The notes: generated by a model not told the origin, from the letters alone. DNA of 64,000 nt from Luteolibacter pohnpeiensis (GCF_016595435.1 NZ_JAENIJ010000002.1:84545-148544), one strand, 5' to 3'; positions 21,801 to 52,984 are shown, numbered from the stretch's first letter. Translations and numbers: made by a program.

Positions 21801-24800
21801 CGCTATTCACCCGGAGTTTCAGGGTCTCTCCCGGCGCATAGGTTTGCTTATCGGTCAGCAACTCGATGTCACCGAACTTCCAATGCTCCGTGTCGGGAGC
21901 GCCGGAGCCATACACATTCAAAATCGCCCCGCCTTCCGTGACTTCACCGCCATCAAGCGAGAGCTTTGCGGAAAGCCGGTATTGTCCCGCAGCAGGTGCC
22001 TGGAATTTCTGCTCGATCTTGCCTTCGGCGTTCGTTTCCACCGGCCAGGAGGAAACTTCAGTTTCCTCGACTCGGCCATCGTCTCCGATATTCAGCTTGA
22101 GCAGGGCCAGGGTTCCCTTCGCACCAACCACCGGTTTCCCCGCCAAGGTAGCAGCGGAGATTTGCGCGACAACATCGTCACCTGGAGCGCTAAATCCACG
22201 CTCGGTCCAGACCACGACTTCGAATGGTTTTCGCGCTGCGATCACCTCCCCCGTGCCAGATTCCTCGCGTCTTGAAGCGTCCACCACTCGCGCCTCGATC
22301 ACGTATTTCGCGTCCATGTCGCCATGGGCCTGCAGCGCCGCTGCGGTATCCACCACCACTTCAACGGTACCATCTGGCCCGATTTCCGTGGTCTTTTGCA
22401 GCACCAACTCATCCGGCGTCCAACGGCCCCGATTTTGCCATGGCGGTGATGGTGGGAAGCAACGCCAGGAAGCCCAGGACGGGTGCCAGCTTGCGACCGC
22501 CTGAGGCCACCAGGCACCGGGTCCGTAAAGCCAATCCCATCTTGAAAGCGGGAACCAACGTTCGCCGAGCGATTTTCGTTTCACCGTGATCTCGACCCGC
22601 GCATTTCGCACCGGAGCACCATGGAAATAAGTCGCTTTGACCTTGGCGGTAAAAGTTTCGCCCAATTTCACCGGGGCATCTGGTGCCTCAACGGTCACCT
22701 CATACTCCGGCTTCCGATACTCCTCGACCCGGAAGGACATCGACGTCGAAATCTTGTCGACGATCTCGAATCTCGCACGCCATTCCCCCAGTGCCGCATC
22801 CCTGGGGATCACCGTCTCCGCCTCGACAGTTCCCATTGCATCGGTCTTCAGTTTTTCGAGTTTTACCGATTCGTCACCGCGTCCATTGTAAAGGGTTAGG
22901 GTCCCTTCCAAGTTGGCATATTTGCCATCCTCCGGATTGAAATAACCGACATTCCTTAGATAAAATTTCAAATGCACCGTATCCCCCGGCTGATAGAGCG
23001 GCCGGTCTGAAATCCCATAGCTGATGTCACGATTGCCATTCTCGAACCCAGACTCGCCGAGATAGTAGTTCAGGAAACCGGAATACGCCGACTTCCGCCC
23101 CTCGCTTTTCGCAACCGTCATCCATTGATAGTCACGGTCCCAATCGCCGCCATTTAGCAGCACCTTACCTTCCGCATCGGCAACGCGGGAAAATTCCTTC
23201 ACCAGGACATTCATTTTACGCCCCTGTGGCTCAGGCTTATTGACCGGCACGGTGCGAAAGCCGAAAAACTCAAATTCAGCCCCAGCGACAGGCTCGCCCG
23301 TTGCAGCATCGACGGCCCACCACTGTTTTTTACCATCCACATCCTTGTGCATCACGACCGTATCGACGATCCAGACCAAGGTGTTGAAAGGATGGCCATC
23401 GGCAGTTTCCGCAGTGATCCACCAAGCACCGGAATCCTCGACCGGAACTTCCAGCTCCACGTAAGTTTCCCGATGATCCGGAAGAGGCTTCAGGCTCTCA
23501 TCCCATGACTTCGCGACCTCGCCAATGTATTTGGACTCGTTATCATGAATCAATCGATTGGCCACGTTCGCGATGTTGATCATTTGATAATCGATCCCAT
23601 TGGGATTCGACTTCAGATAACTCACCGCATCTTTCAGAACGCTTTCCACATCCACCGGAGCAGCGGTCAACTTCAGCTCACGAGCATTCCGGAATACCAA
23701 AGGGAGCTTCACTTTGGAACCATGCGCCACGGATTCTGCACGATTGAACTGACCCCAGTCTCCGGTGATCTGCTCTAACAATTTCTTCCGCGAATCCTCC
23801 GGCCCCGGGCCATGTTTGGAAATGACCTGCTCCAGGCATTCTTCCGCCTTCTTCAATTGCAGGCGATCCAAGTAAACGGAAACCAGCGCGTCACCAGCAT
23901 CCCCGCCCAATCCCTTATCGTCCAAAATCGACCGATAGAGCGCGATAAAATGATAGTCCGCAGACAATTTGAAGCGCTTCACGCCATCCGATGTCTCCGC
24001 CAGGCATTCATCATCGGCGAGAGTCTCGACTTCCAGAATGCTTTTCGCCTGCTCCGGATCCTGCCAGCCCCATCGCTGATAAGAATTGAGACTTCTAATG
24101 CTGAATTCTTGCTGCAACTTCCGCGCCCGGATCATGATGACGCGCGCCTTGTTATTTTCATCCAGCTTCACCTGCTGATCCAATGCAAACCGCAATCTCT
24201 CGCCATCGTTCTTGGCTGCGTCCCAGCTTTCCGGAATCTGATAGAGGACCGGCTTGCCATCTTTCCACGGCGCCCCCTCAGTCCCTCCGTTCGGTCCGGG
24301 TTCACTCCATTCCGGTAGTGCATCCAGCGGCGTCAAGGTTTGCAACTTCCAGTCGTCCCGCTCCCCGATCAGTCCTTCGACATCTTGCCAAATATCGACC
24401 TTATCCTGAACCTCAACCGCCTTGGACTGTGCCAGCATCACCAACTGAAGGGAGCGAACGAAATCGCGGTAGTCGGTAAAAACGGTCTCCCCGGCATTTG
24501 CCACCGGATCCGCACCAGGCGCTGCCCGACGGATCGCATAGCCAGCGGAGGCATCTCGTTCAAACTCACCCGCGATGAGCCTGCCACGATGTGGAGCCCT
24601 CCAATATCCAGCAGCAGCCTCAGCCAGTAGCTTCGGGTTTTCCGCATGCGACGCTACGGCATTTTCTACCAAACCATCGAACTCGGCCCACTCGCGTAAA
24701 TTGCGCAATGCATCCACCGCATCACGCAGGTCCTCACCCGATTTGTCATCATTGATGGCCGAAAGTTGCTCACGATAAAGCGTTACCACATCGCGCCAAA

Positions 24801-24915
24801 GACCGCGTTTCATCAAGTCCTGACGCTGCTCACGCAACTCAGCCGAGGGCTGCGCCATTGCCAGGAAAGAACACCAATAGGTCAAAACACAAAGCCAAAC
24901 GGAAAATCTCATCAC
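18805..24915 (-). CDS. Alpha-2-macroglobulin family thioester-containing protein (2036 aa).
   Basis: Signal peptide. Thioester motif GCTEQ inside DYPHGCTEQTLNRF. The size is consistent with a large bacterial A2M. No pbpC partner is present in the window. Confidence 0.85.
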   Translation of the reverse strand: MMRFSVWLCVLTYWCSFLAMAQPSAELREQRQDLMKRGLWRDVVTLYREQLSAINDDKSGEDLRDAVDALRNLREWAEFDGLVENAVASHAENPKLLAEAAAGYWRAPHRGRLIAGEFERDASAGYAIRRAAPGADPVANAGETVFTDYRDFVRSLQLVMLAQSKAVEVQDKVDIWQDVEGLIGERDDWKLQTLTPLDALPEWSEPGPNGGTEGAPWKDGKPVLYQIPESWDAAKNDGERLRFALDQQVKLDENNKARVIMIRARKLQQEFSIRSLNSYQRWGWQDPEQAKSILEVETLADDECLAETSDGVKRFKLSADYHFIALYRSILDDKGLGGDAGDALVSVYLDRLQLKKAEECLEQVISKHGPGPEDSRKKLLEQITGDWGQFNRAESVAHGSKVKLPLVFRNARELKLTAAPVDVESVLKDAVSYLKSNPNGIDYQMINIANVANRLIHDNESKYIGEVAKSWDESLKPLPDHRETYVELEVPVEDSGAWWITAETADGHPFNTLVWIVDTVVMHKDVDGKKQWWAVDAATGEPVAGAEFEFFGFRTVPVNKPEPQGRKMNVLVKEFSRVADAEGKVLLNGGDWDRDYQWMTVAKSEGRKSAYSGFLNYYLGESGFENGNRDISYGISDRPLYQPGDTVHLKFYLRNVGYFNPEDGKYANLEGTLTLYNGRGDESVKLEKLKTDAMGTVEAETVIPRDAALGEWRARFEIVDKISTSMSFRVEEYRKPEYEVTVEAPDAPVKLGETFTAKVKATYFHGAPVRNARVEITVKRKSLGERWFPLSRWDWLYGPGAWWPQAVASWHPSWASWRCFPPSPPWQNRGRWTPDELVLQKTTEIGPDGTVEVVVDTAAALQAHGDMDAKYVIEARVVDASRREESGTGEVIAARKPFEVVVWTERGFSAPGDDVVAQISAATLAGKPVVGAKGTLALLKLNIGDDGRVEETEVSSWPVETNAEGKIEQKFQAPAAGQYRLSAKLSLDGGEVTEGGAILNVYGSGAPDTEHWKFGDIELLTDKQTYAPGETLKLRVNSDHADASVWLFIHMAGNSGREAKLVKLDGKSLEVPVPLDARDMPNMFIEAVTVFNGEVHSTEREVLLPPVSKLIDVSLEPAANRVQPQAHSSIKLTLKDAAGNPIRGKAALTIYDKALEAIAGGSNVGPINENFWGWKNEFYGYSIPDSIPIASGNLVRDGSEEMVHLGYYADAGIRTQSRSLYGRQRYEFAESDADPFAASPATPMMARGGAMAKGAEMAAAPEIHVRKDFADLLKWSGEIETDENGQAEIPLEFPDNLTTWKARVWAMADGTQVGEGTAEIITSKELLVRLQAPRFLVEGDEAVLSAVVHNDHSEAKSVTVSLELDGEALELVSGESPTVEMAAMSEKRVDWKVKALHAGEATLRMKVTADDDGDAVERQLPVLVHGISKQEAWSRVVTEDQESAAIDFEVPDKRRPEESKLTIRFSPTVAGAVVDAIPYLADYPHGCTEQTLNRFVPAAIARKMLTEMGVNLAEIRAKRINLNPQQLGSGREKEWQQWQRNPVFDEAELDRMISTGLDRLAGMQNADGGWGWFSGYGEHSYPHTTALIVHGLLAANQAGVDIPSTMLDPAIGWLIAYERHEAEALQRYVENQALRAAGKKVPNKNLREKVRCDAVDAFVRYVLGQALRNSEPMAAFLYRDRLDLPVYAQCLLGLEQNRMGDVARRDEMLEVVSQFLKQDAENQTAYLDLNNQTYWWYWYGSEVEANAWYLKLLAAVKPKDSVARGVAKYLVNNRRQGSAWKSTRDTAFAVEAIADYFTASGEGAPEMKVEVLVDGNSLRTVEINRDNLFDFDGTIVLSGEQVPGGKHQIELRRSGKGTLYANAYLQVFTMEDQLKATGLEVKVQRRVSRLIPLEKETETPDSTGLVTHQLEQRFRREVLKDGDSVKSGDRIEVELILESKNDYEYLLFSDAKAAGFEPLEALSGYVPGSTLNAYMEPRNESVNFYIRSLPRGKHTLRYQLRAEAPGTYKALPAMAEGMYAPELRANSDDIRLKVGE

Positions 24916-25282: not shown

Positions 25283-25675
25283 CTATTCATAAGGGAGATC
25301 TTTGGCCGAGATTCCGATGAAATCAGGATCAGGCATTTCTGGCAGCTTGTAGGCATCAATCTTTTCCAATCCTAGAACCAATGCCTTACAAACCCGATGC
25401 ATCCCATCCATCACTCTACCATCCGGATCAAGGATGATCGGAAAACTCAAATCTGCACCATTAATAAGTTTGGAGTGATTCGCGATACTTCGGCATGTTG
25501 GAGCATCGCCTTCTGAATCATACCAATACATCTCGTCAATTTCCAGAATGCTGGTGAGTTCAATTTCCGAGGGCGTTAAATCGATCGTTTTCTTGATTAG
25601 ATTGCGCACATCCCATGCCAGCAATCCCTGTTCAGATGGCCGGAAATGATATTGAGGTCGCATTCTTTCTAACAA
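25283..25675 (-). CDS. Small ParB/Srx-fold (ParBc-like) domain protein.
   Basis: PIILDPDGRVMDGMHRVCKALVLGLEKIDAY resembles the ParB N-terminal / sulfiredoxin box (DG-HR...A). 130 aa. Same strand as the giant ATPase and 128 bp downstream of it. Confidence 0.45.
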   Translation of the reverse strand: MLERMRPQYHFRPSEQGLLAWDVRNLIKKTIDLTPSEIELTSILEIDEMYWYDSEGDAPTCRSIANHSKLINGADLSFPIILDPDGRVMDGMHRVCKALVLGLEKIDAYKLPEMPDPDFIGISAKDLPYE

Positions 25676-25803
25676 CGAATTTTCAAAAAATCTCAGCGCT
25701 AACTCAGATCGAAGAATTGAAGCAATTCAATGAATCCCCACACGCACCCTTGGCTGAAAAAAGCGTTAACTTTAATGCAATGGCTTCATCGGAATTCATG
25801 ACT

Positions 25804-28800
25804 CTATTCTTCACCAACGTTTTGCCGCACCTCGGGTTTGATGTCGATCGGAGGTTCATCATTTCCATCGAGGCTTTGGATAGGGCCGTTTTGTTCCTGA
25901 ACGGGCACCACCTTGATATCGACCTCCACTGGGACAGCTCGAAGGCCGGCGATGATGTCCCGCAATTGCTCCACAGTGGTCTCTGCAAGTGTTTGCGGTT
26001 TGATATAGTCCCGACCCGTTTCAGCAATGACAGTCCGGATGGAATCCAATCCGTCTTGAAAGGCTGAGAGTTGAGCGACGACGCGAGCCACCGGATCGTT
26101 CTCACCACTACCACCGAGCAGGCGGCGCTTCATGAATTCCTTTTTGATGTCCGTCCAACGGGCGATTTCCTTCTCATTGGCAATGCCTTCAAATTCCTTG
26201 AACTTGAGCAAGTTCGCCTCAGCCCCTTGAGTGAGTGTCTGCGATTCGTTTTGATAGTGATCCAGAATCAGTGACCGCACCTCCGCCAAAGTCATCAGTG
26301 GCAGGATCTTTTCAGCAATCCGATTCATGTTCCGATACGAACCTTGTAGCTTGAATGGCGGCTCTGTCCGATAGGCATCCTCTTGTGCCGCGCTGCGAAT
26401 GTATTCCTGGTTCACTTGCAGGATCGTGTCGCGGATCTCGAACAAATGGCGGGTGACTTTCACCATTTCCTCAATCTCTGCCGGTGCATAGTTCCCTTTG
26501 AAATCAATGCCTTCCTGAGAGCCAGTCGCGGCGATTTTCATCACCGTGTAGATGTCTTCCTGATGGCGGCTGGCTAGCTTCGCCATGACCTTGTTAGAAG
26601 TCAGGCTGTTCTCGATGTAACTCGCCTTAAATGCCTCAAGATGACCTCCAAGGATATCGCCGAGGTTATAGGTGTCCGCCCGGTTGGCGAGCATGTCCGG
26701 GATTTTGAACTTCGCGCCGCCTTCAGTATACGGGTTCCCGGCCATCACCACCGCGACCTTCTTACCACGGAGATCGTAGGTTCTGGCTTTGCCACGCCAC
26801 ACCCCTTCCATCTTGCGTTGGCCATCGCAAAGGCTGATGAAGCGTTGCAAAAATTCGGGGTTGGTGTGTTGGATGTCATCCACGTAAATCATCACGTTAT
26901 CCCCCATCTCAAGCGCGAGATTGAGCTTATCCACTTCCTCACGCGCCGAAAGGTTCGGTGCTTCGGTCGGGTCCAGGGAAACCACGCCATGCCCAAGCGC
27001 CGGGCCATTGATTTTCATGAAAGTGAGGCCAAGACGATTCGCCACATATTCCATGATCGTCGTTTTCCCGTAACCCGGTGGCGAGACAAGAAGCAACAAG
27101 CCTGAACGGTCGGTGCGTGTATCCACACCGGCGGTGCCGATCTGCTTGGCAAGGTTGTCTCCGATCAGAGGAAGATAGACTTCATTGATCAGCTGATTGC
27201 GCACAAACGAACTCATCACTCGTGGCTTGAATTCATCAAGCTTCAGCGACTCGCGTTTCTCCTCCGTCAACTGTTGCTTCAACCCGGCGCAAGCTTCGAA
27301 AGCAGGAAGATCATGTCGCTCGAACTTCATCAGCCGATCTCGAAACGCATGGTAATCGGTTTCATAAACTCCGCCATCACCAATCATCGGGTGCTGGCCG
27401 CGCAATCCCGAGACATGGATTTTCGAAACCACCTCAATCACTCCAAGCTGCTGGATGCCGCCACGCAACCAGTGAGCCGCAGCTTCCGCTACCCAGGAAA
27501 GTGGTGAGGTTCCATGCTGTGTTTCTTGAATGGCAGCCGATTTCAATTGCCCAGCCATCCAATCAAAAATCACCAGAAAGCGCCTTTCCGCATCCTTCTC
27601 AAATGCGGTCAGCACCTTGTTCATTTCAGCGACGGCACCTCTCTGATCCATTGCCAATTTGAACTCAGCGGTCGTTGCGGCTGCTTCAGCCGAAGCAGCG
27701 AAAGCTCCGCCCTCTGCCAGCTGTTCGAACAGATAACCGGCCGCCTCAGCTGCGAAAGAAACAGGCTCTGCGTGCTCACCGATACCCGCAATTTGCGAAG
27801 CCGCAGCTGAATCGGTTAGGAATGCCGAAAGCTGCCGCTGCAGCGCGGCCTGCATCGGGTGATTCGGAGTTGGAGCGGTGCCAAACGCGCGCCGCATCGC
27901 TCCGTGTGAGGCGATCATCGGCGCCAAGCGCGAACCTTCCTGCGTGTCCTTGAACACTTCCCAGAACAACATCGCCAACGTGCGAACGCGCGGGCCGAAT
28001 TTCAGCAAACCCAATGCATCATGGATCGGGCGGATCGCTGTGAGCAATTTCACCGCATCTTCGTCATGAACGCCCTTGGTATAACCTTCGGCATATCTAG
28101 CAGACATGAAGGCGTGCACCGCCTCCAGATCATTGCCTTGGTTTCCATCCTGCAGCATCCGATGAATCAACCATTCGACCCGATACACCTGGCGATTTTC
28201 ACTAATCAGTTGCTGATCCCAAACCTCGCGCGTGGCAAGAAACCGCTCATCGGTTACAGGCTCAAAAAATCCAGTTCCTGATAGATGATAGGCCATGCCT
28301 TCCTCATGTGGCACAATCGAAAGCGCAAGCTCCTGAGTATTGACCGAGAACCGATGCTTGCCGAATTGCAAAACATCTTTGCCGCCTGCGAACAACTCCT
28401 TGCGATCGCGCAGTTGTCGGATTGCATCGCTTTGCAAGGTCTTCAGCCGTGTCTGAAGATCATCCGATTTGACCGTATCACCCAAATCGCGAAGTTCAGA
28501 AATGATGTCGCGCAGCTTGGAAACCATCAGGTCACCCGCAAAGTAACCATTGATCGCGTCCAAATCCTCCTGCGAATCGGCGCGATTTTTGACACCGCTG
28601 AGAATTCGCTCAGCGGATTTCATCAGGTTACCCGCACGCCGACCGCGTTGTTCTAACAGCGACTGCTTCCGTCCCTCGAACGCTTCATAGACTTCTTCAC
28701 GCTTGCGTGAAAGTTGGTCGACATACTCATCGAAGTCAGCGAACCGACCTTCGAGTTCCTCGACCTGGACCATCACCTTGGTCAGGTATTCATCACACTT

Positions 28801-30921
28801 TTCGGGAGTATCGCAAAGGTCGATGAAATTCACCACGGCTTGACCGAGCAGCTTCATCTGCGCGCCGAATTGAGCGACGCCTTCACTTTGCGCCAATTCG
28901 CGACGCTTGGATTTCAGCTCAGCACGAATGCCATTGAGAGTTGCATACAGCGCCGAGATATTTTCGATGATCGCGGTCGTCTGTGTCGGATCTTCGATCC
29001 GCAGATTGCCAACAATATCGATCAACAATTCCAGTTCGCTGCCCGCTTGATCGAGCGCCTTCGCCACCTCATCCGCCTCGGTGGTTTTGGTGATTTGTTT
29101 GAGTATCGCGTGCTGTTCCTCAATCGCCTTCCGATAAGGATCGAGCGCCTCGTCACGCATCAGGAAATCCGCAGTCTGCTTGGAAACCTCATCAGTTGCC
29201 TTGGTGACCTGCTGGTCCAATGACTCAACAAACTGAAGGTCCACATAGCGCAGTTCACGCAGACCGATGATTTCACCGCGCCGCATCCGCAGATCGGCCA
29301 GGTTTCTAACAAAGCCTCGAATATCATCCGGAGATGTGATGCGGACCGCTTTGAGCAGTTTTTCGGTGATCGCACGGACTTCATTCGAACGAGCAGCCGT
29401 CGCCTGGCGGAGACGTTGCACTTTATCAAACTCCTCGATCGCCGAGTTGGCAGCGGCGTTGATTTCCTGAAGTGGTTCGGCGAGATTTTTTGTCTCCTCC
29501 TGATTCAACCAAAAGTAAGTATCAAGAACCTCGCGGCTGCGTTTGACCAGATCGAGATAAACATTCGCGTAGGTATCCCCTTTTCCAAACAGGATCAGGA
29601 TTTCCCGTGCTTCCGCCATCCCATGAACGAGGTTGGCATTGCCGACCTTGAACAAGAGAGACTCGCGTTTTTCCTCTGGCACCGCAACCGCGGAATCTCC
29701 GGCATACGGCGTTTGCCAAAGTTGCAAGGCATGATGTTTCTGTGGCTGATCCGGTGCTTTGAACTGCACCATTCTGCCATCGGCCGCGATCGCGAAACCA
29801 TTGCAAACCATCGGCGTTTCCACCTGCTGGGCGATGACGTTGTAGGACAACAAAACGTAATGACCGCTGGCTTGTTGATAGAAAACAAACAGGGTGTCTT
29901 CGCCATTCCCGGCCAGCAATCGGCGCTCGAAACGCAATTTACTCAGGCCGGTTTCGAATGTTTTCACCTCACCTGTCGCCAGGATATATCCATTGGCAAA
30001 CAGAAGCCCTTGGTCTTCTGGCAGTAGAACGCAGGATTCACCGATCCCATCGAGTCGATGGACGGCCTTGGTCTTCTCATTGAAAACCAGATAGCGGTGC
30101 AGCTCCTCACGGTACGGCAAAACCCGTAGCACGATGAGCGATCCGATGATCGCATAGTGAATCTCGGCATCATCCAGAGTTTGATCCGAATCCGTGACCG
30201 GCTCCGCGTAAATCCCCTCGCCGGTCTTGGTGTTATCCTCGATTTTAACCGTCAGGTCACCGCCTACCGTTTCAACGAACACCCGATCTTCAATGGAAAT
30301 GTGCGGATGCTCGCCAGAGCGATGCATATCGCGGTGTGCACGGGTCCATTGGAATTCAGTGGTCTCAGGAAACCGGCATTCATGATCCGAGCGATTGCCC
30401 TGATACTCCATGCTCCCATCACCATTCAGAAGCCACTTGAAGGTTTTGAAATCATTCTCGGTTTTCCCAATCCGCATTTTCATATGCAGGTGGGGCCCGA
30501 TCACCATGAATTTGATGAAAACCGCCTCGCGATAGTAGCGAAACAGCGTGTTGAAATCTTCAACAAACCCTTTATCGGTTAGCACCTCGCCAAGAGGGAC
30601 CGGATGAAAAGTGCCTTCGGGCTCCAACCGGTAGAGTGCGAAAACATCCTCCAACTCCATGGTCTGCTTAAGACCGAACTGGATATTGAATCCTAACAGA
30701 TAGAGATCATTTCCCAAACCGATGATATCTCGCGGAACACAGTTATGGCTGGTCGCGATGTGTCCGGTGGAAAGAAGGGCTGTCGGAATCGCGCCAAAGA
30801 CATCCTGCCGCGCGGCGTTCAACTGCTCGATCCGCTCACGCAGAACGGTCGCATGTTGATCAAGCCGGGCACGGATCACCTCATAGGCGCCGCCCTCAAG
30901 TTGTTGGGGTGCATCACTCAT
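25804..30921 (-). CDS. Giant 1705-aa multidomain protein with a MoxR/McrB/dynein-type AAA_5 ATPase module.
   Basis: Uninterrupted 5.1 kb ORF. The single AAA_5 module at about residues 1190-1330 has Walker A LLLLVSPPGYGKTT, Walker B/AAA_5 box VMIYVDDIQHTNPEFLQRFISL, a sensor-1-like VAVVMAGNPY and an Arg in IPDMLANRADTYNL. About 1150 aa N-terminal are coiled-coil or Ala-rich with no motif I recognise. There is no TM segment. Confidence 0.8.
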   Translation of the reverse strand: MSDAPQQLEGGAYEVIRARLDQHATVLRERIEQLNAARQDVFGAIPTALLSTGHIATSHNCVPRDIIGLGNDLYLLGFNIQFGLKQTMELEDVFALYRLEPEGTFHPVPLGEVLTDKGFVEDFNTLFRYYREAVFIKFMVIGPHLHMKMRIGKTENDFKTFKWLLNGDGSMEYQGNRSDHECRFPETTEFQWTRAHRDMHRSGEHPHISIEDRVFVETVGGDLTVKIEDNTKTGEGIYAEPVTDSDQTLDDAEIHYAIIGSLIVLRVLPYREELHRYLVFNEKTKAVHRLDGIGESCVLLPEDQGLLFANGYILATGEVKTFETGLSKLRFERRLLAGNGEDTLFVFYQQASGHYVLLSYNVIAQQVETPMVCNGFAIAADGRMVQFKAPDQPQKHHALQLWQTPYAGDSAVAVPEEKRESLLFKVGNANLVHGMAEAREILILFGKGDTYANVYLDLVKRSREVLDTYFWLNQEETKNLAEPLQEINAAANSAIEEFDKVQRLRQATAARSNEVRAITEKLLKAVRITSPDDIRGFVRNLADLRMRRGEIIGLRELRYVDLQFVESLDQQVTKATDEVSKQTADFLMRDEALDPYRKAIEEQHAILKQITKTTEADEVAKALDQAGSELELLIDIVGNLRIEDPTQTTAIIENISALYATLNGIRAELKSKRRELAQSEGVAQFGAQMKLLGQAVVNFIDLCDTPEKCDEYLTKVMVQVEELEGRFADFDEYVDQLSRKREEVYEAFEGRKQSLLEQRGRRAGNLMKSAERILSGVKNRADSQEDLDAINGYFAGDLMVSKLRDIISELRDLGDTVKSDDLQTRLKTLQSDAIRQLRDRKELFAGGKDVLQFGKHRFSVNTQELALSIVPHEEGMAYHLSGTGFFEPVTDERFLATREVWDQQLISENRQVYRVEWLIHRMLQDGNQGNDLEAVHAFMSARYAEGYTKGVHDEDAVKLLTAIRPIHDALGLLKFGPRVRTLAMLFWEVFKDTQEGSRLAPMIASHGAMRRAFGTAPTPNHPMQAALQRQLSAFLTDSAAASQIAGIGEHAEPVSFAAEAAGYLFEQLAEGGAFAASAEAAATTAEFKLAMDQRGAVAEMNKVLTAFEKDAERRFLVIFDWMAGQLKSAAIQETQHGTSPLSWVAEAAAHWLRGGIQQLGVIEVVSKIHVSGLRGQHPMIGDGGVYETDYHAFRDRLMKFERHDLPAFEACAGLKQQLTEEKRESLKLDEFKPRVMSSFVRNQLINEVYLPLIGDNLAKQIGTAGVDTRTDRSGLLLLVSPPGYGKTTIMEYVANRLGLTFMKINGPALGHGVVSLDPTEAPNLSAREEVDKLNLALEMGDNVMIYVDDIQHTNPEFLQRFISLCDGQRKMEGVWRGKARTYDLRGKKVAVVMAGNPYTEGGAKFKIPDMLANRADTYNLGDILGGHLEAFKASYIENSLTSNKVMAKLASRHQEDIYTVMKIAATGSQEGIDFKGNYAPAEIEEMVKVTRHLFEIRDTILQVNQEYIRSAAQEDAYRTEPPFKLQGSYRNMNRIAEKILPLMTLAEVRSLILDHYQNESQTLTQGAEANLLKFKEFEGIANEKEIARWTDIKKEFMKRRLLGGSGENDPVARVVAQLSAFQDGLDSIRTVIAETGRDYIKPQTLAETTVEQLRDIIAGLRAVPVEVDIKVVPVQEQNGPIQSLDGNDEPPIDIKPEVRQNVGEE

Positions 30922-30940
30922 CTCAAAAAAAGGTAAAGTT

Positions 30941-30967
30941 CCGGCAGGCTCTAACAGAACCTGCCGG
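30941..30967 (-). terminator. Intercistronic hairpin plus U-tract between the flotillin gene and the giant ATPase gene. Probably a partial terminator or attenuator.
   Basis: CCGGCAGG, 11-nt loop, CCTGCCGG. On the minus-strand RNA it is followed by AACUUUACCUUUUUUUUGAG and then the ATG at 30919-30921. Confidence 0.4.
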
Positions 30968-30979
30968 ATAGGGTAATCA

Positions 30980-33022
30980 TCACTTCAGGAACGAAGCGAC
31001 CTTCGCGTCAGCAAGGCCAAATCGCTCCGCGGTTCCAAGCAGACCGATCATTTTCTGGCGACTTTCACCGTTTGCATCTCCAATCAATTTTCCTAACAGA
31101 GCGGAAATGCTCAAGTTCTTCAGATCTTCAGTGGAAACACCGAAATCGGTGATCCAGGTGTTGATCTGGGATTTGAAGTATTCCGGATCGCCATTGAAGA
31201 AGGTGTCCTTCACGTCTCCGAGCACCTTGCTGTTGTCCACCGCGCGATCTACGACTTTTCCCGTAGTAATCGCCTTGGTGATACGGTCGAAGAACTCGGT
31301 TTCGCCGCCGACGATGTCGATCTTCGAATGCTTGAGGGCTTCTCCGATGACAACTGCCTGTTGCTCGGCAATCTGACGTTGGACGTCGATCTGAGCGAGT
31401 TCGATCGCCTTGTCTTTCTCGAGTTCCAGTTTGAACTCTTCGTGATCCTGACCGGCTTCTTCGAACAGCTTCATCGCATCGGCTTTCAGACGGATTGCTT
31501 CCGCATCGGCTTCGCCCTTGGCGCGCAGCACATCGGCTTCGCCCATGCCAATTGCGGCGGACTCCTTCGAAACAGCTTCGGCAAGCATCTTCTTCGCAAG
31601 AGATTGTTTCTCTGCAGAGCTTTGCTCGGCTTCGGCGATGATGATCATTTGCTCGGCATCCAGCTTTGCAGCCTGACGACGTGCCTCCGCAGATGTGGTG
31701 ATCGAGTACGCCTCTTCGTCAGCTCTGAATTGCGCTGCTTGTTTGTGAGCCTCGGCCTCTTTGGTTTGTTGGATCAGGTTTTCCTGAGCGGTTGCCTCCG
31801 CAGCCGTGACCAGCACCTTCTTCTCACGCTCCGCACCAGCGAAGGCTTCGGTGTCCTTGATTTTTTGTTGTTCTTCCACCACGGACTTTTCAACCACGAC
31901 ACGCTCGCGGATGACGTCCTGGATTTCCTTGCGTTGAATCTCGACGGCTTTTTCCGCTTCGATGCGTTTCAGCTCGGTCACGCGCTCACGTTCGATTTGT
32001 TCGACCATGCGCTCACGTTCGACGCGCTCAAGTTCGACCGCATCGGTGCGCTCTTTATTGCGCTGGGCAACCAACACCTGGCGTTGCTTGTTTTCTTCAG
32101 CGATAGCCAATTCTTCGTCTGCAGCGATGCGTGCAACCTCGGCTTTGCGGCGTTCTTCCTCGCGAACCTTGGCGGCTTCTGCTTCCTCACGGGATTGCAC
32201 CGATTCGACTTCGCGCTTCTGGCGTGCCTCGGTTTCTTTCAGCTGACGCTCAAGCTCCAGGATGGCTTCACGTGCTTCCACGTCCTGCTGTTTGATCACC
32301 TTTTCCTTATCGCGCTGAATTCGGTTCGAAAGCTTCGCTTGTTCAGCAGTGAGTTCGGTGATTTTCTTGATACCCTCGGAATCGAGAATGTTATCGGGAT
32401 CAAGCATTTCGATTGGCGTCTGCTCCAGAAAGTCGATCGCAGCATCTTCGAGGACATAGCCATTCAGATCGGTGCCGATCACACGCAGGATCGCGTCGCG
32501 GAACTTATCACGATCTTCGTAGAGCTGGATGAATTGGAAGCGCTTGCCGACGGTCTTGAGCGCTTCAGAGAATTTCGCATCGAATAGATTACGGATCTCT
32601 GCTTCACTGGATGCACGCTGGCAGCCGATCGACTCGGCGACTTTCAACACGTCTTCCTGGACGTTATTGATACGAACGAAGAACACGACTTTGATATCTG
32701 CCCGCATGTTGTCCTGACAGATCAGACCGTTTTTTCCTGTACGGTCGACTTCGATCTTTTTCACCGAAATGTCGATCTCTTCGATGCGGTGAATGATCGG
32801 CCACACAAAGCCACCGTTAAAAATCACTTTCGGTCCCTGTCCGGTCCGAACCAAGGCTTTGCCTTTCTCGACTTTCCGATAACAAGTTAGAATTAGATAA
32901 GCAAATCCAATGGTGATGATGACACCGATCACAATTAGAACAAGGCTCATCGAGCCCAGGAGATCACCCAACACCCCGGGAGGGAAATGGGAACTAATCA
33001 AGTGGATGGAGGATTCTTTCAT
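30980..33022 (-). CDS. Flotillin-family SPFH/band-7 protein (YqiK/FloT-like), 680 aa.
   Basis: N-terminal TM segment, an SPFH core (KALVRTGQG...IEEIDISVKKIEV), and a long flotillin-type C-terminal coiled coil rich in E, A, R, K and Q. Confidence 0.85.
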   Translation of the reverse strand: MKESSIHLISSHFPPGVLGDLLGSMSLVLIVIGVIITIGFAYLILTCYRKVEKGKALVRTGQGPKVIFNGGFVWPIIHRIEEIDISVKKIEVDRTGKNGLICQDNMRADIKVVFFVRINNVQEDVLKVAESIGCQRASSEAEIRNLFDAKFSEALKTVGKRFQFIQLYEDRDKFRDAILRVIGTDLNGYVLEDAAIDFLEQTPIEMLDPDNILDSEGIKKITELTAEQAKLSNRIQRDKEKVIKQQDVEAREAILELERQLKETEARQKREVESVQSREEAEAAKVREEERRKAEVARIAADEELAIAEENKQRQVLVAQRNKERTDAVELERVERERMVEQIERERVTELKRIEAEKAVEIQRKEIQDVIRERVVVEKSVVEEQQKIKDTEAFAGAEREKKVLVTAAEATAQENLIQQTKEAEAHKQAAQFRADEEAYSITTSAEARRQAAKLDAEQMIIIAEAEQSSAEKQSLAKKMLAEAVSKESAAIGMGEADVLRAKGEADAEAIRLKADAMKLFEEAGQDHEEFKLELEKDKAIELAQIDVQRQIAEQQAVVIGEALKHSKIDIVGGETEFFDRITKAITTGKVVDRAVDNSKVLGDVKDTFFNGDPEYFKSQINTWITDFGVSTEDLKNLSISALLGKLIGDANGESRQKMIGLLGTAERFGLADAKVASFLK

Positions 33023-33060
33023 GGGAGGTTTGGTTTCTAGGGTTAGATTGGGATAAATCG

Positions 33061-33747
33061 TTAGATTGAAGTAGTGGGAATGGGATGAACTAGATAAACT
33101 CCGGAGCTTTGATCGAGTGATACCACTACGATCTCAGTACCTCGGGGAATGGCGTCCGCGCCTTCTGTGAGTCTCGCATTCAGAATCGCTGGAGCACCCT
33201 GTTCACGAATGACTTCGACTTGACCGAATTTTGAATCGAGAATGATGGAACGGACCACGCCGGTTTGACCGATCACCGGCACCGCATCTTCCTGCTCCTT
33301 CAACTTTTTCATCAGTGGCACCAAAGGCTGCGTCACCAATTTGGTCACGATGGCACCCGTAATCAGAGCGCCCAATGCAAACCCAAGGGCAAGCAAATTG
33401 CTGTGACCTGGATTCAGATAATAATTCGTCAGAATGGAAATCGCCCACATGGCCGTGACCATCACGCTGATGACCACCGTGGTCGGAATAAGCCCCGCAT
33501 TTACGAATCGAAGCAATGCTCCTGCGACATCACCAATATTTCCGGCATCGCCGTCCACATCGACATCCATGTCCACGTCAACATCGGAGTCGGGCAGATC
33601 GAAATCTAACAGATCAACACCGACTGCGCCAAGCAATGATACAAGCCAGAAGACGACAACCACGCCTAGCGCGATTGTCAGCGGCAGATTGTATGGCAAC
33701 AACGCCTGCTCCCAAAGTTCTTTCACGGAGGAGACCTTAGGGAGCAC
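33061..33747 (-). CDS. NfeD/YqiJ-like membrane protein (the usual flotillin operon partner).
   Basis: Three TM helices, an acidic DVDVDMDVDVDGD linker, and a C-terminal OB-fold-like VVRSIILDSKFGQVEVIREQG...GTEIVVVSLD. Ends 38 bp upstream of the flotillin gene. Confidence 0.7.
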   Translation of the reverse strand: MLPKVSSVKELWEQALLPYNLPLTIALGVVVVFWLVSLLGAVGVDLLDFDLPDSDVDVDMDVDVDGDAGNIGDVAGALLRFVNAGLIPTTVVISVMVTAMWAISILTNYYLNPGHSNLLALGFALGALITGAIVTKLVTQPLVPLMKKLKEQEDAVPVIGQTGVVRSIILDSKFGQVEVIREQGAPAILNARLTEGADAIPRGTEIVVVSLDQSSGVYLVHPIPTTSI

Positions 33748-33798
33748 ATCGATTCATGACAACATGTTCCGCTGTGTAAACGCAGCCCATGTTTGTAG

Positions 33799-35043
33799 TC
33801 ACTTTTGATCTATGTGTTGAGAATTTCCACCCACTCCGAGGCCACGGTACATCACGGCGAAGATCACGAAACATACAGCGATCATCGACGCCAGGATTCC
33901 CCAAAAATGAAACCAGCCTCCCACTCCATCCTCAACAAAATGGTTGCGCAGCCAACCACAGACGCGAGCACCAATAAACGGACCGAATCCGGATGACATA
34001 AATGCCAGCAGTCCTTGCGCCTGCCCTCGCATTCCCGCATCCACCCGGCGATCCAGGAAGACCTGCGCCGTAATGAAATAGAATGTATAGCAAACGCCAT
34101 GAAGGCCGATACCCAAGATGTGCCAACCTATGACGCCAACCAGCCCGGCATACGCGCTCAAGCTAAAACGCAGCGCGGACAATCCCAGCGCCATCAACAG
34201 CACAACTTTCACACGCAATCTCGCCATGACCGAACCAACGATCAGTAGCGCTACGATTTCACTAGCTTGAGCCACCGCCATGGTCGCAGTCGGATGCGTA
34301 TCCCCCATTGCCTTCAACTGCTCCGGCGAAAACATGTAGAATGCCGCAAGCGGGATGGAGAACAAGGCGGTCACCACAAAGAAAACGCAATGATCCCTTT
34401 GCTTCAGCAGCGTGAACGCATCAAAGCCTAACAGACTTCGCCACGACCTGCTCTTGCCCAGTGGTGGTGTATAGGGAAGGCAAAGCCCGATGACGCCTGC
34501 CGCCAGACGGCCCAGCGCGCCAGCATAGCCCGCCAAAGGAGAGCTATCCGCATGCAACACGAGTCCTGTTAACAGACCGCCACTCACCCATCCCAGGGTC
34601 GCTCCTATTCTAACAAATGGAAAACTTCGCTCGGACTTCGCCAAATGGGTAAACGAAACCGTGGCAAGATAACCCCACATCGGGCCACAAGCCAAGGAGT
34701 ATAGACCTAACAAACCGATAAACCACCACGCATTCCAGCCACGATGCAATACGAGAAATGCCAGCGCCAGAAAGATCGATCCGAGCAACGAGCTATAGGC
34801 AAACAATCGGTTTGCGGCAACCCGCTGATCCGCCAATGCGCCGCCGATCAGTGGAGAAACCATTGCCGCAAACGGCGCCACCATGAATGCGATCGCAACC
34901 CACTCGGACAAGCCCAGGGATCGCATGATATTGGTGAGGGCGGGCATCCAACAGCCCGATGACATGCCTTGAAAAAAGAACGCGAGCCAAATCCAGACGA
35001 ATGTTCCGTATTTGCCACTACCGCGTTCTGGGTCGTTCCTCAC
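33799..35043 (-). CDS. MFS transporter.
   Basis: About 12 TM helices and a GxLaDr-like motif (GGALADQRV). 414 aa. Ends 51 bp upstream of the NfeD-like gene. Confidence 0.8.
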   Translation of the reverse strand: MRNDPERGSGKYGTFVWIWLAFFFQGMSSGCWMPALTNIMRSLGLSEWVAIAFMVAPFAAMVSPLIGGALADQRVAANRLFAYSSLLGSIFLALAFLVLHRGWNAWWFIGLLGLYSLACGPMWGYLATVSFTHLAKSERSFPFVRIGATLGWVSGGLLTGLVLHADSSPLAGYAGALGRLAAGVIGLCLPYTPPLGKSRSWRSLLGFDAFTLLKQRDHCVFFVVTALFSIPLAAFYMFSPEQLKAMGDTHPTATMAVAQASEIVALLIVGSVMARLRVKVVLLMALGLSALRFSLSAYAGLVGVIGWHILGIGLHGVCYTFYFITAQVFLDRRVDAGMRGQAQGLLAFMSSGFGPFIGARVCGWLRNHFVEDGVGGWFHFWGILASMIAVCFVIFAVMYRGLGVGGNSQHIDQK

Positions 35044-35154
35044 TTCATGAGCTTGGCTGTGTGACTCAAGAGATCCAGTCGGTTTTCATGGGAATTACAA
35101 ACTCGCACCCCGTAGAATCTACGAATTCCCTTGCTAAATGACCTGCGACTTGAT

Positions 35155-35168
35155 TTGTTCCACCGAAC
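35155..35168. promoter_or_regulatory. Candidate LexA operator (SOS box) TGTTCCACCGAACA.
   Basis: Perfect TGTTC-N4-GAACA palindrome 14 bp upstream of the lexA ATG. It lies in the 138-bp divergent intergenic region shared with the MFS gene. A third half-site, CTGTTCACC, follows directly. Confidence 0.6.
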
Positions 35169-35181
35169 ACTGTTCACCCTT

Positions 35182-35793
35182 ATGCACGCCCTCACCCCAC
35201 GCCAACAAGAGATCCTGGACTTTCTAAAAACGTCCCAACGCGAGTCCGGCATCATGCCGTCGACTCGTGAAATTCAGCACCATTTCAATTTCGCGAGCCA
35301 AACTGCAGCGATGAGCCACCTCCGTGCGCTGGAGAGAAAAGGCGTGATCCAGAGGCTCGCCGGAAAAGCCCGAGCCGTCATTTTCCCCGATGAACTCAAC
35401 CGTGCCGAGGTTGTTACCATTCCGCTTTACGGTCGGATTGCCGCCGGTATGTCCCAAGACGCACCTCAGGAACAGCAAGGATGCATTTCCGTCGATATTG
35501 CATCACTCGGCATTCCACGTCATGCCCGCACATTCGCGTTGAAAGTCCATGGAGACTCCATGATTGACGCGCACATTTGCGATGGGGATACGGTGATTCT
35601 GGAATTCAAGGAAGCACGTAAAAACGACATTGTTGCCGCTTTGATCGATGGTGAAACCACTCTCAAACGCTATGTTTTGGACAAAGGGCGACCGTTTCTA
35701 AAGGCAGAAAATCCAGATTACCCGAATCTCATTCCTGCCCGTGAGCTGATCATTCAAGGCGTGCTCGTCGCGCTGCTTCGGCAAACCAACTGA
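35182..35793 (+). CDS. lexA: LexA repressor (S24 peptidase).
   Basis: MHALTPRQQEILDFL...HLRALERKGVI wHTH region. Cleavage-site and catalytic Ser/Lys region (AAGMS..., GDSMIDAHI, TLKRY). The track ORF starts 17 codons early. Confidence 0.9.
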   Translation: MHALTPRQQEILDFLKTSQRESGIMPSTREIQHHFNFASQTAAMSHLRALERKGVIQRLAGKARAVIFPDELNRAEVVTIPLYGRIAAGMSQDAPQEQQGCISVDIASLGIPRHARTFALKVHGDSMIDAHICDGDTVILEFKEARKNDIVAALIDGETTLKRYVLDKGRPFLKAENPDYPNLIPARELIIQGVLVALLRQTN

Positions 35794-35969: not shown

Positions 35970-37265
35970 TTGAAGCCCCCTAACATGATCAGTTTCTCGT
36001 GCCCTGCATGTCGGGTGAGATTGACACTCCCCGTTCATCTGGCAGGCGTAGTAGGACCTTGTCCTAACTGCCGGACCGAGATCCAAGCTCCATTAGCCTC
36101 AAATTACCGTCCATCGTTATCGGACATTCCCCTACCCGTTGTTTCATCCCCAGCTGCACGAACGGAATACCAACCCACTCCCGAGTCGGGCGACCCAGAA
36201 GCTCCCATTCGGCTTGAGCATCCATTTCGCCCGGAACCACGACATTTGCCACAGCGATCGGATTTCCCTGAGCCTCCGATCGGCAAGCCCATGCCGGAGC
36301 CAGATCCCTACAACACAGGGCGCGCCTATCGTCCGTCCGCTTACCGGCGGCGTCCGATTTTACGAATGCTGATCCCGATCTTCGGCATCCTCATCTTGGC
36401 CGCCATTGTAAGTGGACTGTGCATGTTCCTGATGCATCGAAAAACCGATCCGTTGCCGCTGACGAATGCAGAGGACCTGCAACCAACGTCTCCGCCCAAA
36501 GCCAGCCCCCCCCCTGAGGAATTATCATCCATCGGCGGAGATGCCCCCAGTGCCCCAGAGACTCCTGATGCGTTGCCAGCCCCGAAAGAGAGTCCGGATT
36601 TCGCACAGGTCGCCAAACAAGCTGGTGAAGTGCTTAATCAATTTCTGAATGCTCAAAGCCTCGAAGAACGGCTCCCATTGATCGAGACCAAAGCAGATCC
36701 TACCACTCTGCAAGACACAGTTCTGGCCAAACCAATGCCTCCGGTACAGCGATCGGTGGTGGAAATGCAACAGCCGCCGGATCCGATTGAAAACCTCATC
36801 GACACCTACTTCAGCGTCGCATTCAGAACGGAAAACAACGGCACGGATCAACAGCTGATCTTGGTTCGAACACGACAATCCGCAAATCCGAAAGTGGTGG
36901 TTGAGCCTTTCCTCGATTTGTATGGCGGGAGATTGAAGCAATTCTGCGAAACTCCGGTCAGCAAGGCTGAAACCTTTGAAGTGGTCGCCTCAGCGCTAGC
37001 AAATTGTTACAATGAGGCGGTGCCGAATCGTGAGAAAAAGATGGCCATCAAACTCATGGCGCACGATAACACGCGGCCCATCGCCGAGGCGTATTTCAGC
37101 AGCAAGCACTCTCAGATAGCCGATCTTCTTTCGGATGATCTTTCGGGTTTCCGCTATGGCCAGGCTCAGCCATGCACGATTTTGCTCCGATGGAACACCG
37201 AGGAAGATCCCGAGAAGCCTTTCATTGAAGCGCTCGATATCAGCGCGCTCAATTGGAACCCTTGA
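35970..37265 (+). CDS. Zinc-ribbon (CxxC-x17-CxxC) membrane protein with a proline-rich linker and a C-terminal domain of unknown function.
   Basis: MISFSCPACRVRL...GPCPNCRTEIQAP, a Pro-rich spacer, TM helix ILRMLIPIFGILILAAIVSGLCMFL, then a roughly 260-aa soluble domain. Confidence 0.6.
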   Translation: MKPPNMISFSCPACRVRLTLPVHLAGVVGPCPNCRTEIQAPLASNYRPSLSDIPLPVVSSPAARTEYQPTPESGDPEAPIRLEHPFRPEPRHLPQRSDFPEPPIGKPMPEPDPYNTGRAYRPSAYRRRPILRMLIPIFGILILAAIVSGLCMFLMHRKTDPLPLTNAEDLQPTSPPKASPPPEELSSIGGDAPSAPETPDALPAPKESPDFAQVAKQAGEVLNQFLNAQSLEERLPLIETKADPTTLQDTVLAKPMPPVQRSVVEMQQPPDPIENLIDTYFSVAFRTENNGTDQQLILVRTRQSANPKVVVEPFLDLYGGRLKQFCETPVSKAETFEVVASALANCYNEAVPNREKKMAIKLMAHDNTRPIAEAYFSSKHSQIADLLSDDLSGFRYGQAQPCTILLRWNTEEDPEKPFIEALDISALNWNP

Positions 37266-51969: not shown

Positions 51970-52971
51970 GTGATTCAAAGTTTTATAAACAAATTATCAT
52001 CCAAACCGCCCCGGCAGAGATTTTCCATTGTCGTGAAGTTGATAGTCACGGCCATCGCCCTTATCCTTTTCCTAGTCGGATCACTCAGCTCTTTCTACAG
52101 CGTCCCTATGGAATCGGAAGCAGTTGTGCTGCGCTTTGGAAAGTTCCACAGCATCGCACCACCGGGGCTGCACTATAAGCTGCCTTATGGGATCGATGAA
52201 ACCATTATGGTGCCAGTGCGGCGGCAACTAAAACTTGAATTTGGGTTCACCACACCAAACGCGACCAATCCCTATCAATCCAGTCAGGAACCCAAACTCG
52301 AACGGGACATGGTCACGGGAGACCTGAATGCAGTTCAAGTGGAATGGATTGTCCAATATACAATCGCTGATCCCCGCAAATATCTCTTCAACCTGCGCGA
52401 CCCCGCCGCCACACTGCGCGATCTAACAGAAAGCGTGATGACAGAAATCATCGGCGACCGGACCGTCGATGAGGTGCTGACATTTGGCCGCACCGAAATT
52501 GAGGTCGAGGCACTCACCCGATTGCAACAGCAACTCAACTTGTTAGATATCGGTATCCGTGCTGATCAGATTCAACTGAAAAACGTCCATCCTCCGGGAC
52601 CGGTGCAGAGCTCATTCGACGAAGTGAACCGCGCCCAACAGGAACGGGAACAGATGATCAATGAAGCAAATGGCCAATACAATCGTGTCATTCCAAAAGC
52701 GCGAGGCCTGGCCGATCAACGGATTTCCGCAGCCGAAGGATATGCGGTCCAGCGGGTCAACGAAGCTGAAGGCGATGTTGCCCGATTCAAGGAATTGCTC
52801 ACCCAATACGAAAAGGCTCCGGCGATCACCCGCCAGCGGCTGTATCTCGAAACCATGAATGAAGTGCTGCCGAAAATGGGCGGAAAAATCATTCTCGATG
52901 AAGATGCCAAACAATTTCTCCCACTGATGAACCTGAATTCATCATCAGTCCCAGCTTCTAACAAAAACTAA
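51970..52971 (+). CDS. hflK: FtsH protease modulator HflK (SPFH).
   Basis: TM helix, then VVLRFGKFHSIAPPGLHYKLPYGIDE and the SPFH core. Confidence 0.85.
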   Translation: MIQSFINKLSSKPPRQRFSIVVKLIVTAIALILFLVGSLSSFYSVPMESEAVVLRFGKFHSIAPPGLHYKLPYGIDETIMVPVRRQLKLEFGFTTPNATNPYQSSQEPKLERDMVTGDLNAVQVEWIVQYTIADPRKYLFNLRDPAATLRDLTESVMTEIIGDRTVDEVLTFGRTEIEVEALTRLQQQLNLLDIGIRADQIQLKNVHPPGPVQSSFDEVNRAQQEREQMINEANGQYNRVIPKARGLADQRISAAEGYAVQRVNEAEGDVARFKELLTQYEKAPAITRQRLYLETMNEVLPKMGGKIILDEDAKQFLPLMNLNSSSVPASNKN

Positions 52972-52984
52972 TTTCCCAGGACTC

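Follow-up and report, generated by a model that had tools for sequence, protein, structure and literature searches.

The region considered here, positions 25283-35181 of a 64 kb stretch of DNA from Luteolibacter pohnpeiensis (Verrucomicrobiota; the whole stretch is referred to below as the window), encodes a very large AAA+ ATPase next to a flotillin and a YqiJ/NfeD-like membrane protein. Five open reading frames (ORFs) are co-oriented on the minus strand, namely those for a major facilitator superfamily (MFS) transporter (414 amino acids, 33799-35043), the YqiJ/NfeD-like protein (228 amino acids, 33061-33747), the YqiK-type flotillin (680 amino acids, 30980-33022), the predicted cytoplasmic ATPase of DUF3686-DUF7902-AAA+ architecture, as assigned with Pfam domains (1705 amino acids, 25804-30921), and a protein with a predicted ParB/Srx-like fold (130 amino acids, 25283-25675), with intervening spacers of 51, 38, 58 and 128 nucleotides (nt). 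Gene order and spacers are exactly those first reported in an earlier note on this DNA, and the identities given there to the MFS, YqiJ-like, flotillin and ParB/Srx-like genes are borne out by Pfam, hhalign, phmmer and the predicted fold. Pfam places the transporter in the nucleoside:H+ symporter family (PF03825, E 3.5e-60). On the opposite strand lies lexA, listed as an ORF at 35131-35793 (+) with a TTG start, the true start being the ATG at 35182.

The family of the 1705-residue ATPase comprises 922 clusters at 50% identity, mostly of 1,600-1,900 amino acids, and at least 585 species genomes carry a member according to a scan with one genome per species. We examined 80 of these genome loci and one metagenomic locus, and scored flotillin adjacency in the 59 loci that include at least 3.2 kb upstream of the ATPase gene. 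In 55 of the 59 loci, the gene immediately preceding the ATPase gene, in the same orientation, encodes a flotillin (~680-720 amino acids), and in 52 of these 59 a YqiJ-like gene also precedes the flotillin gene, with strand and order likewise kept. The loci represent Verrucomicrobiota, Planctomycetota, Kiritimatiellota, Desulfobacterota, Bacteroidota and Clostridia. Thus, the link between the ATPase and a flotillin/NfeD-like pair proposed in the earlier note holds; rare adjacency to SPFH/NfeD genes had been named there as the observation that would speak against it, and adjacency is the common arrangement. The same succession is seen in the RefSeq annotation of the Pseudomonas fluorescens plasmid pQBR103 and of a Streptomyces plasmid, in which a protein named 'SPFH domain-containing' or 'flotillin family' is followed by a 'DNA repair ATPase'.

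The other two genes of the run do not share this conservation. Homologs of the MFS transporter, of the 130-residue protein and of LexA are found in none of the 83 loci used for neighbour-gene comparison, which include relatives with a 74% identical ATPase, and the ParB-like gene in addition has a foreign composition and unrelated contexts elsewhere (see below). The five-gene unit envisaged originally is therefore to be trimmed: the conserved unit very probably consists of three genes, encoding the YqiJ-like protein, the YqiK-like flotillin and the DUF3686 AAA+ ATPase, whereas the MFS gene is a lineage-specific addition upstream of the module.

In 16 of the 24 Bacteroidota loci, the operon extends further upstream with genes for a CesT_Tir_1 family protein (E 1.1e-56) and a PspA_IM30 family protein (E 2.5e-40). 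We also observe a longer arrangement in pQBR103, a megaplasmid of P. fluorescens SBW25 (locus L092:1-13190), where ten genes are co-oriented, with YjfI and PspA first, the SPFH protein and the ATPase last and, between these ends, genes for a rhomboid protein, DUF2491, DUF350 and DUF1190 proteins, a glutathionylspermidine synthase-like protein and a hypothetical protein. This run joins a polyamine-type PspA operon to the flotillin-ATPase module and, pQBR103 being a well-studied plasmid, offers a convenient experimental system.

Proteins of the module

The product of the first gene of the conserved module is a YqiJ homolog, as indicated by comparison of a 23-sequence family profile with Escherichia coli YqiJ (hhalign probability 96.9%, E 1.7e-10, 187 columns), although the L. 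pohnpeiensis protein on its own scores 20.3 bits against Pfam YqiJ_N, under the cut-off of 23. It contains three hydrophobic segments, which fits the type of YqiJ/YuaF proteins with three transmembrane (TM) segments, and alignment with homologs suggests that translation actually starts at the codon-8 GTG at 33726.

The 680-residue protein has an N-terminal membrane segment (a single hydrophobic segment, residues 13-49) and an SPFH domain; a long coiled coil rich in Glu and Ala leads to a C-terminal domain that is conserved. Its family aligns with E. coli YqiK over 404 columns (hhalign probability 100%, E 5.4e-42), and a phmmer search of the window ORFs with E. coli YqiK matches it at E 1.1e-43. 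The SPFH membership is assigned through this transitive homology to YqiK, since the protein does not match Pfam Band_7 (PF01145) directly, even at E 10; just 4 of 26 members of the flotillin family reach that profile, the best at E 7e-14. Judged from these comparisons, the protein is plainly a YqiK-type flotillin.

The 1705-residue protein is 100% identical to a RefSeq L. pohnpeiensis protein named 'DNA repair ATPase'. According to the earlier note, an AAA_5 ATPase was its sole recognisable module, following ~1150 unassignable residues, a description that is superseded by the domains that we detect in this part. Residues 27-470 (29512-30843, minus strand) match Pfam DUF3686 (PF12458) almost end to end (E 2.5e-177; 590.3 bits, cut-off 25; profile positions 2-448 of 448), and residues 591-675 (28897-29151) match DUF7902 (E 8.3e-27). 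In an AlphaFold2 model covering residues 1-1200 (mean predicted local distance difference test score, pLDDT, 74.6), the DUF3686 region is predicted to form an N-terminal helix followed by a beta-rich part (residues 48-403), for which Foldseek retrieves propellers of WD-repeat proteins and of the clathrin terminal domain (probability up to 1.00, but weak E values of ~1e-3), hence the designation propeller-like. The model continues with a long helical/coiled-coil region (residues 416-839; 28405-29676) that includes DUF7902, a small low-confidence beta unit (residues 850-888) and a confidently folded, compact Ala-rich helical domain (residues 914-1152; 27466-28182; pLDDT mostly 80-94), just within the N-terminal edge of which lie the family-invariant residues G950, H952 and D955.

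The AAA+ core (residues ~1240-1440; 26602-27204) is almost invariant across 51 diverse homologs. In particular, the Walker A motif SPPGYGKTT (1280-1288), the Walker B motif DDIQH (1348-1352), a sensor-1-like N1396 and an arginine finger-like R1414 do not vary at all, and therefore the protein is probably a catalytically active ATPase. No hydrophobic segment is present, which indicates a soluble protein. The previous assignment to a MoxR/McrB-type AAA_5 class does not withstand profile comparison. The core scores higher against PF00004 (31.4 bits, E 2.9e-7) than against AAA_5 (22.9 bits, cut-off 22); its PDB sequence matches, Cdc48/p97/VAT, Rix7, NVL and RuvB, are confined to the P-loop, and neither MoxR nor McrB is among the 60 matches; and in hhalign comparisons of the ATPase family the probabilities are 76% for E. 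coli FtsH (over only 35 columns), 8% for RavA and 31% for McrB (over 20 columns). Domain searches of the 1705-residue protein found no protease or other effector domain, domain and PDB searches detected no DNA-binding or nuclease domain, and no MIT domain was detected. A PspA-like segment within the coiled coil was considered because the Joint Genome Institute names one homolog 'phage shock protein A', and was rejected, the PspA profile giving no match. More generally, PDB sequence and family-profile searches with the flotillin, the ATPase and the ParB/Srx-like protein yielded only P-loop matches or, for the flotillin family, a weak match to the coiled-coil region of QmcA.

Flanking genes and the question of defence

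The ParB/Srx-like ORF probably encodes 126 amino acids, starting from the ATG at 25663. The protein has no Pfam match; its AlphaFold2 model (pLDDT 90.6) supports a ParB-N/Srx-like fold, with top Foldseek matches that are all ParB-N, KorB, Noc or Srx proteins (probability up to 1.00, E 3.5e-3, template modelling score ~0.4), and a DGMHR motif is invariant in the family. The gene has a G+C content of 44%, against 52-53% for the three module genes. Its family is widespread and stand-alone, with homologs in three other genomes located in unrelated contexts, and the 53-74% identity across Verrucomicrobiota, Gammaproteobacteria and Betaproteobacteria suggests horizontal spread.

This gene is one part of the proposal that the locus is a defence island in which a membrane scaffold, an McrB-like NTPase and a ParB-fold, nuclease-like effector act together against phages. 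The ParB/Srx-like fold of the 126-residue neighbour, the small PD-(D/E)XK genes inserted in the operon of some relatives and weak, P-loop-only matches of the ATPase to mad8 and IetA in PADLOC (E 2-3e-3) are consistent with such a role. However, these two sub-threshold ATPase matches are all that a search of PADLOC-DB 2.0 with the five proteins returned, the other four giving nothing; the ParB-like gene is missing from 83 of 83 comparison loci; and the hhalign match to McrB is short and of low probability, as described above. The flanks of the module vary among loci (biosynthetic, peptidase and sulfatase-like genes are among them) and contain no recurrent defence genes. Furthermore, none of 50,697 phage records has a match to the ATPase, and of 72,556 plasmid records just 13 do, most of these being megaplasmids, chromids or mislabelled chromosomes. 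We accordingly regard an anti-phage function as very improbable.

Just downstream of the region (18805-24915, minus strand) is a gene for a 2036-residue bacterial alpha-2-macroglobulin with bMG10, MG2, A2M, bait region and TED domains and the thioester motif GCTEQ. Downstream of lexA, a 431-residue ORF (35970-37265, plus strand) without a Pfam match shows, as read from the translation, a zinc-ribbon-like CxxC...CxxC motif at its N terminus, along with a linker rich in Pro and a single hydrophobic segment.

Intergenic regions and regulation

The intergenic region between the MFS gene and lexA contains a perfect palindrome of the form TGTTC-N4-GAACA (TGTTCCACCGAACA, 35156-35169). It is the sole perfect copy in the window, as the earlier note had it, although the position given there, 35155-35168, was off by one base. 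This LexA box sits 13 nt ahead of the lexA ATG (35182), with a second TGTTC after it at 35171-35175; both elements fall outside the lexA gene because the LexA domain and the ATG begin at 35182 and not at the TTG at 35131. Such a tandem layout of lexA autoregulation has been established experimentally for Verrucomicrobia (Erill et al., 2016, PMC4951493), and by its position the box is read here as the lexA autoregulatory operator. It is also located 113 nt upstream of the start of the MFS gene, formally inside the -250 to +50 interval within which members of the verrucomicrobial LexA regulon were called (Erill et al., 2016, PMC4951493), while adjoining the lexA ATG, so that divergent LexA control from the shared intergenic region might exist in L. 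pohnpeiensis alone.

A DNA-repair or SOS-induced function of the module would agree with this formal position of the box, with the 'DNA repair ATPase' name used in RefSeq and Pfam and with the situation in Flavobacteriales, where a divergently encoded, LexA-like, S24-related regulator accompanies CTAA-N5-TTAG boxes in the shared intergenic region. The name, however, has no experimental basis that we found in the literature, the ATPase contains no detected DNA-binding or nuclease domain, and the box and the adjacent TGTTC correspond to the published layout of lexA autoregulation. Moreover, lexA adjoins the module in none of the other loci, the other verrucomicrobial loci have no LexA box close to the operon, and a search over the 80 genome loci returned one irrelevant site only, within the flotillin gene of a Desulfobacterales locus. 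In the Bacteroidota regulators, there is no Ala-Gly cleavage site and the Ser/Lys dyad is not conserved. Expression of the operon under DNA-damage control, as hinted at in the earlier note, is thus not borne out, and a role of the module in repair or the SOS response appears very improbable.

The Bacteroidota regulator deserves a separate description. In 15 loci of this phylum, a divergent gene for a protein of ~250 amino acids is paired with a cesT-pspA-yqiJ-flotillin-ATPase operon; the protein combines an HTH_3 domain with an S24-peptidase-like domain and an extra C-terminal helix. Flavobacteriales loci with this arrangement are L039:4305-5285, L055, L060, L061, L068, L070 and L076. The CTAA-N5-TTAG motif is present in the shared intergenic region of 7 of the 15 loci, at 2.08 sites/kb compared to 0.038 sites/kb elsewhere. 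It is the operator motif of the non-canonical LexA of Bacteroidetes. Identification of the regulator with that published LexA was considered; the operator agrees with it, but neither the catalytic nor the cleavage residues of S24 are conserved, so that SOS control is unsupported. Given that the Ala-Gly site and the dyad are missing, these regulators are unlikely to be RecA-cleavable, and they may represent non-cleavable LexA-like paralogs dedicated to the operon.

The 58-nt spacer between the flotillin and ATPase genes contains, as identified in a scan for terminator-like structures, a 13-bp stem-loop followed by a U-run (30940-30968, minus strand; minimum free energy -26.1 kcal/mol, z -4.77), with no second copy in the window that would indicate a repeated element. 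Among 24 other loci whose spacer is short, 13 have an equally stable hairpin of unrelated sequence at this place, some with U-tails. Such very stable hairpins straight after the flotillin stop codon are observed in L016, L025, L026, L034, L042, L059, L062, L063, L065 and other loci. The structure may act as a partial terminator, as an attenuator or in stabilising the mRNA end; through partial termination or such stabilisation it would probably keep the amount of ATPase well below that of the flotillin scaffold.

In 27 of 61 loci, the spacer between the flotillin and ATPase genes exceeds 300 nt. Within it, several relatives carry a small gene of the PD-(D/E)XK superfamily (PDDEXK_3, E 2e-38, or DUF559, E 3.7e-27), at L005:9553-9927, L007:9507-9926, L012:76-501, L033:818-1258, L046:9344-9901 and L049:9524-9946. 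Judging from these insertions, the spacer looks like a hot spot at which small nuclease genes, possibly selfish ones, insert.

Relation to described systems and proposed function

The system was presented in the earlier note as a candidate undescribed one. In fact, an operon consisting of a CesT/Tir-PspA pair, a band-7/flotillin protein, an AAA+ ATPase and a 3-TM YqiJ/YuaF protein has been reported, the ATPase being described as an "AAA+ ATPase with coiled-coil and β-propeller", together with more widespread abbreviated operons without PspA that may work with a PspA encoded elsewhere (Ravi et al., mSystems 2024, PMC11237479). That class was described from gene neighbourhoods only, and no function was given (Ravi et al., 2024, PMC11237479). 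By gene content, the L. pohnpeiensis locus is an instance of the abbreviated YqiJ-flotillin-AAA+ operon, within the wider set of PspA (phage-shock/ESCRT-III-like) envelope-stress neighbourhoods. It shares with the abbreviated form a YqiJ protein of the 3-TM type, a YqiK-type flotillin and an AAA+ ATPase with propeller-like and coiled-coil parts, adjacent and co-oriented, and differs from the full form, whose operon begins with a CesT/Tir-PspA pair, in that the window has no such pair; the MFS gene upstream and the strong hairpin before the ATPase gene are additions in L. pohnpeiensis. A literature search for YqiK, YqiJ and an ATPase in combination found nothing further, and neither a Pseudomonas aeruginosa SPFH paper nor an ESCRT survey mentions the DUF3686 ATPase.

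Comparison with better characterized systems shows partial likeness in each case. The E. coli yqiJ-yqiK and Bacillus subtilis yuaF-floT pairs consist of homologs of the YqiJ-like and flotillin genes, arranged in the same order, but in E. coli K-12 yqiK is followed by sibD/ibsD and hldE and not by an ATPase gene, and YqiK has 553 amino acids compared to 680 in the L. pohnpeiensis flotillin. ESCRT-III/Vps4 and PspA/IM30 offer a second parallel, as the PspA context seen in Bacteroidota and in Pseudomonas suggests that the ATPase remodels polymers at the expense of ATP; on the other hand, the window has no PspA gene, and the ATPase has neither a PspA-profile match nor a detected MIT domain nor an evident aromatic pore loop. 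The similarity to MoxR/McrB AAA_5 proteins amounts to the P-loop AAA+ fold and a marginal AAA_5 match, with PF00004 scoring higher and PDB matches to classical AAA proteins and RuvB. The classical AAA clade (Cdc48/FtsH/Vps4-like) is marked by Walker A and B motifs, a second region of homology with an arginine finger and an aromatic pore loop 1. In the DUF3686 family, the Walker A motif, a Walker B motif of the DD type, N1396 and R1414 are invariant; the PDB and hhalign matches extend little beyond the P-loop, and by our reading the pore-loop position has no aromatic residue.

In the HflK/C-FtsH system, too, an SPFH scaffold of the inner membrane has an AAA+ enzyme as its partner, and hflK and hflC are indeed present in the window, at 51970-53962, as noted previously. 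Modelled on this system, a dome of flotillin and YqiJ-like protein could corral the ATPase, which would extract or unfold client membrane proteins, and not remodel the scaffold as such, in an SPFH-caged form of quality control. This possibility agrees with the matching classes of scaffold and AAA+ partner, with the conserved operon link between flotillin and ATPase and with the PDB sequences nearest to the ATPase, which come from classical-AAA unfoldases. Yet FtsH is membrane-anchored, includes a protease domain and is encoded elsewhere, whereas the L. pohnpeiensis ATPase is soluble, has no membrane anchor and no protease or other effector domain, and is encoded beside its presumed scaffold, its homology to FtsH being limited to the P-loop region. 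In addition, our reading of the alignment reveals no canonical aromatic pore loop, and the association with PspA and CesT points to polymer remodelling instead of client degradation. Caged quality control thus appears unlikely, if considerably less so than roles in defence or DNA repair.

The explanation that we favour, and consider rather probable when all its parts are taken jointly, is that the locus is an abbreviated flotillin-YqiJ-AAA+ operon, serving in envelope stress or membrane remodelling, whose ATPase assembles, remodels or dismantles flotillin/PspA assemblies. From gene context, Ravi et al. (2024) arrived at the same view. The homologies, the domain architecture, the absence of a membrane segment from the ATPase, the synteny across phyla and the recurrent joining to PspA operons are established; the physical interaction, oligomeric state, substrate and stress signal of the module are what we infer. 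Together, the YqiJ-like protein, with its three TM segments, and the flotillin, anchored in the membrane, would form a large SPFH assembly on the inner membrane, at its cytoplasmic side. The soluble ATPase would oligomerise via its AAA+ module, dock via the N-terminal propeller and the coiled coil, and drive, at the expense of ATP, the assembly, remodelling or dismantling of the flotillin scaffold and, where PspA is co-encoded, of PspA polymers as well, by analogy to the action of Vps4 on ESCRT-III or to the SPFH-AAA+ pairing of HflK/C with FtsH. The specific mechanism, in which the ATPase docks on flotillin (and PspA) assemblies and remodels or recycles them under envelope stress, is more tentative, and we would place it somewhat short of probable.

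Several observations weigh against this explanation. Four of the 59 loci have no flotillin gene adjoining the ATPase gene, and profiles made from the Bacteroidota genes find neither PspA nor CesT in the 64-kb window. The strong hairpin could mean that the ATPase is transcribed separately from the flotillin. The Walker B motif is DD instead of DE, and a conserved GHxVxSLDP motif, by our own reading of the alignment, stands where classical AAA unfoldases have the aromatic residue of pore loop 1; as this residue is lacking, Vps4-like threading is not assured. On the available comparisons the protein is a divergent AAA+ ATPase, and the hhalign results for FtsH, RavA and McrB do not settle to which AAA+ clade it belongs. 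Finally, a full-text literature search for DUF3686 retrieved no paper, and no experimental study of any member of the module was found in the literature.

A bolder combination can be formulated, which we put forward as speculation and think improbable as a whole. As the first dedicated, ATP-driven factor for assembling or disassembling the domes of bacterial flotillins, the ATPase would be a 'Vps4 for SPFH scaffolds' that engages its substrate via a non-canonical loop; the conserved hairpin would keep the ATPase far below the scaffold in amount; and in L. pohnpeiensis the intergenic region shared with lexA might add a coupling to DNA damage.

The association of these genes is already published, and what the present analysis adds is a cleaned-up definition of the system, which comprises three genes and not five, is in all likelihood neither a defence system nor SOS-controlled, and has an ATPase that is not MoxR/McrB-like. 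Further details that lend themselves to testing are the recurrent hairpin before the ATPase gene and the LexA-like pseudo-peptidases that appear to be dedicated regulators in Flavobacteriales. For the question of what bacterial flotillins do, a soluble, probably active AAA+ enzyme that occurs in at least 585 species genomes, and whose gene directly follows that of flotillin in 55 of the 59 loci scored for this adjacency, provides an experimental handle: the substrate of this ATPase would reveal the purpose of the scaffold.

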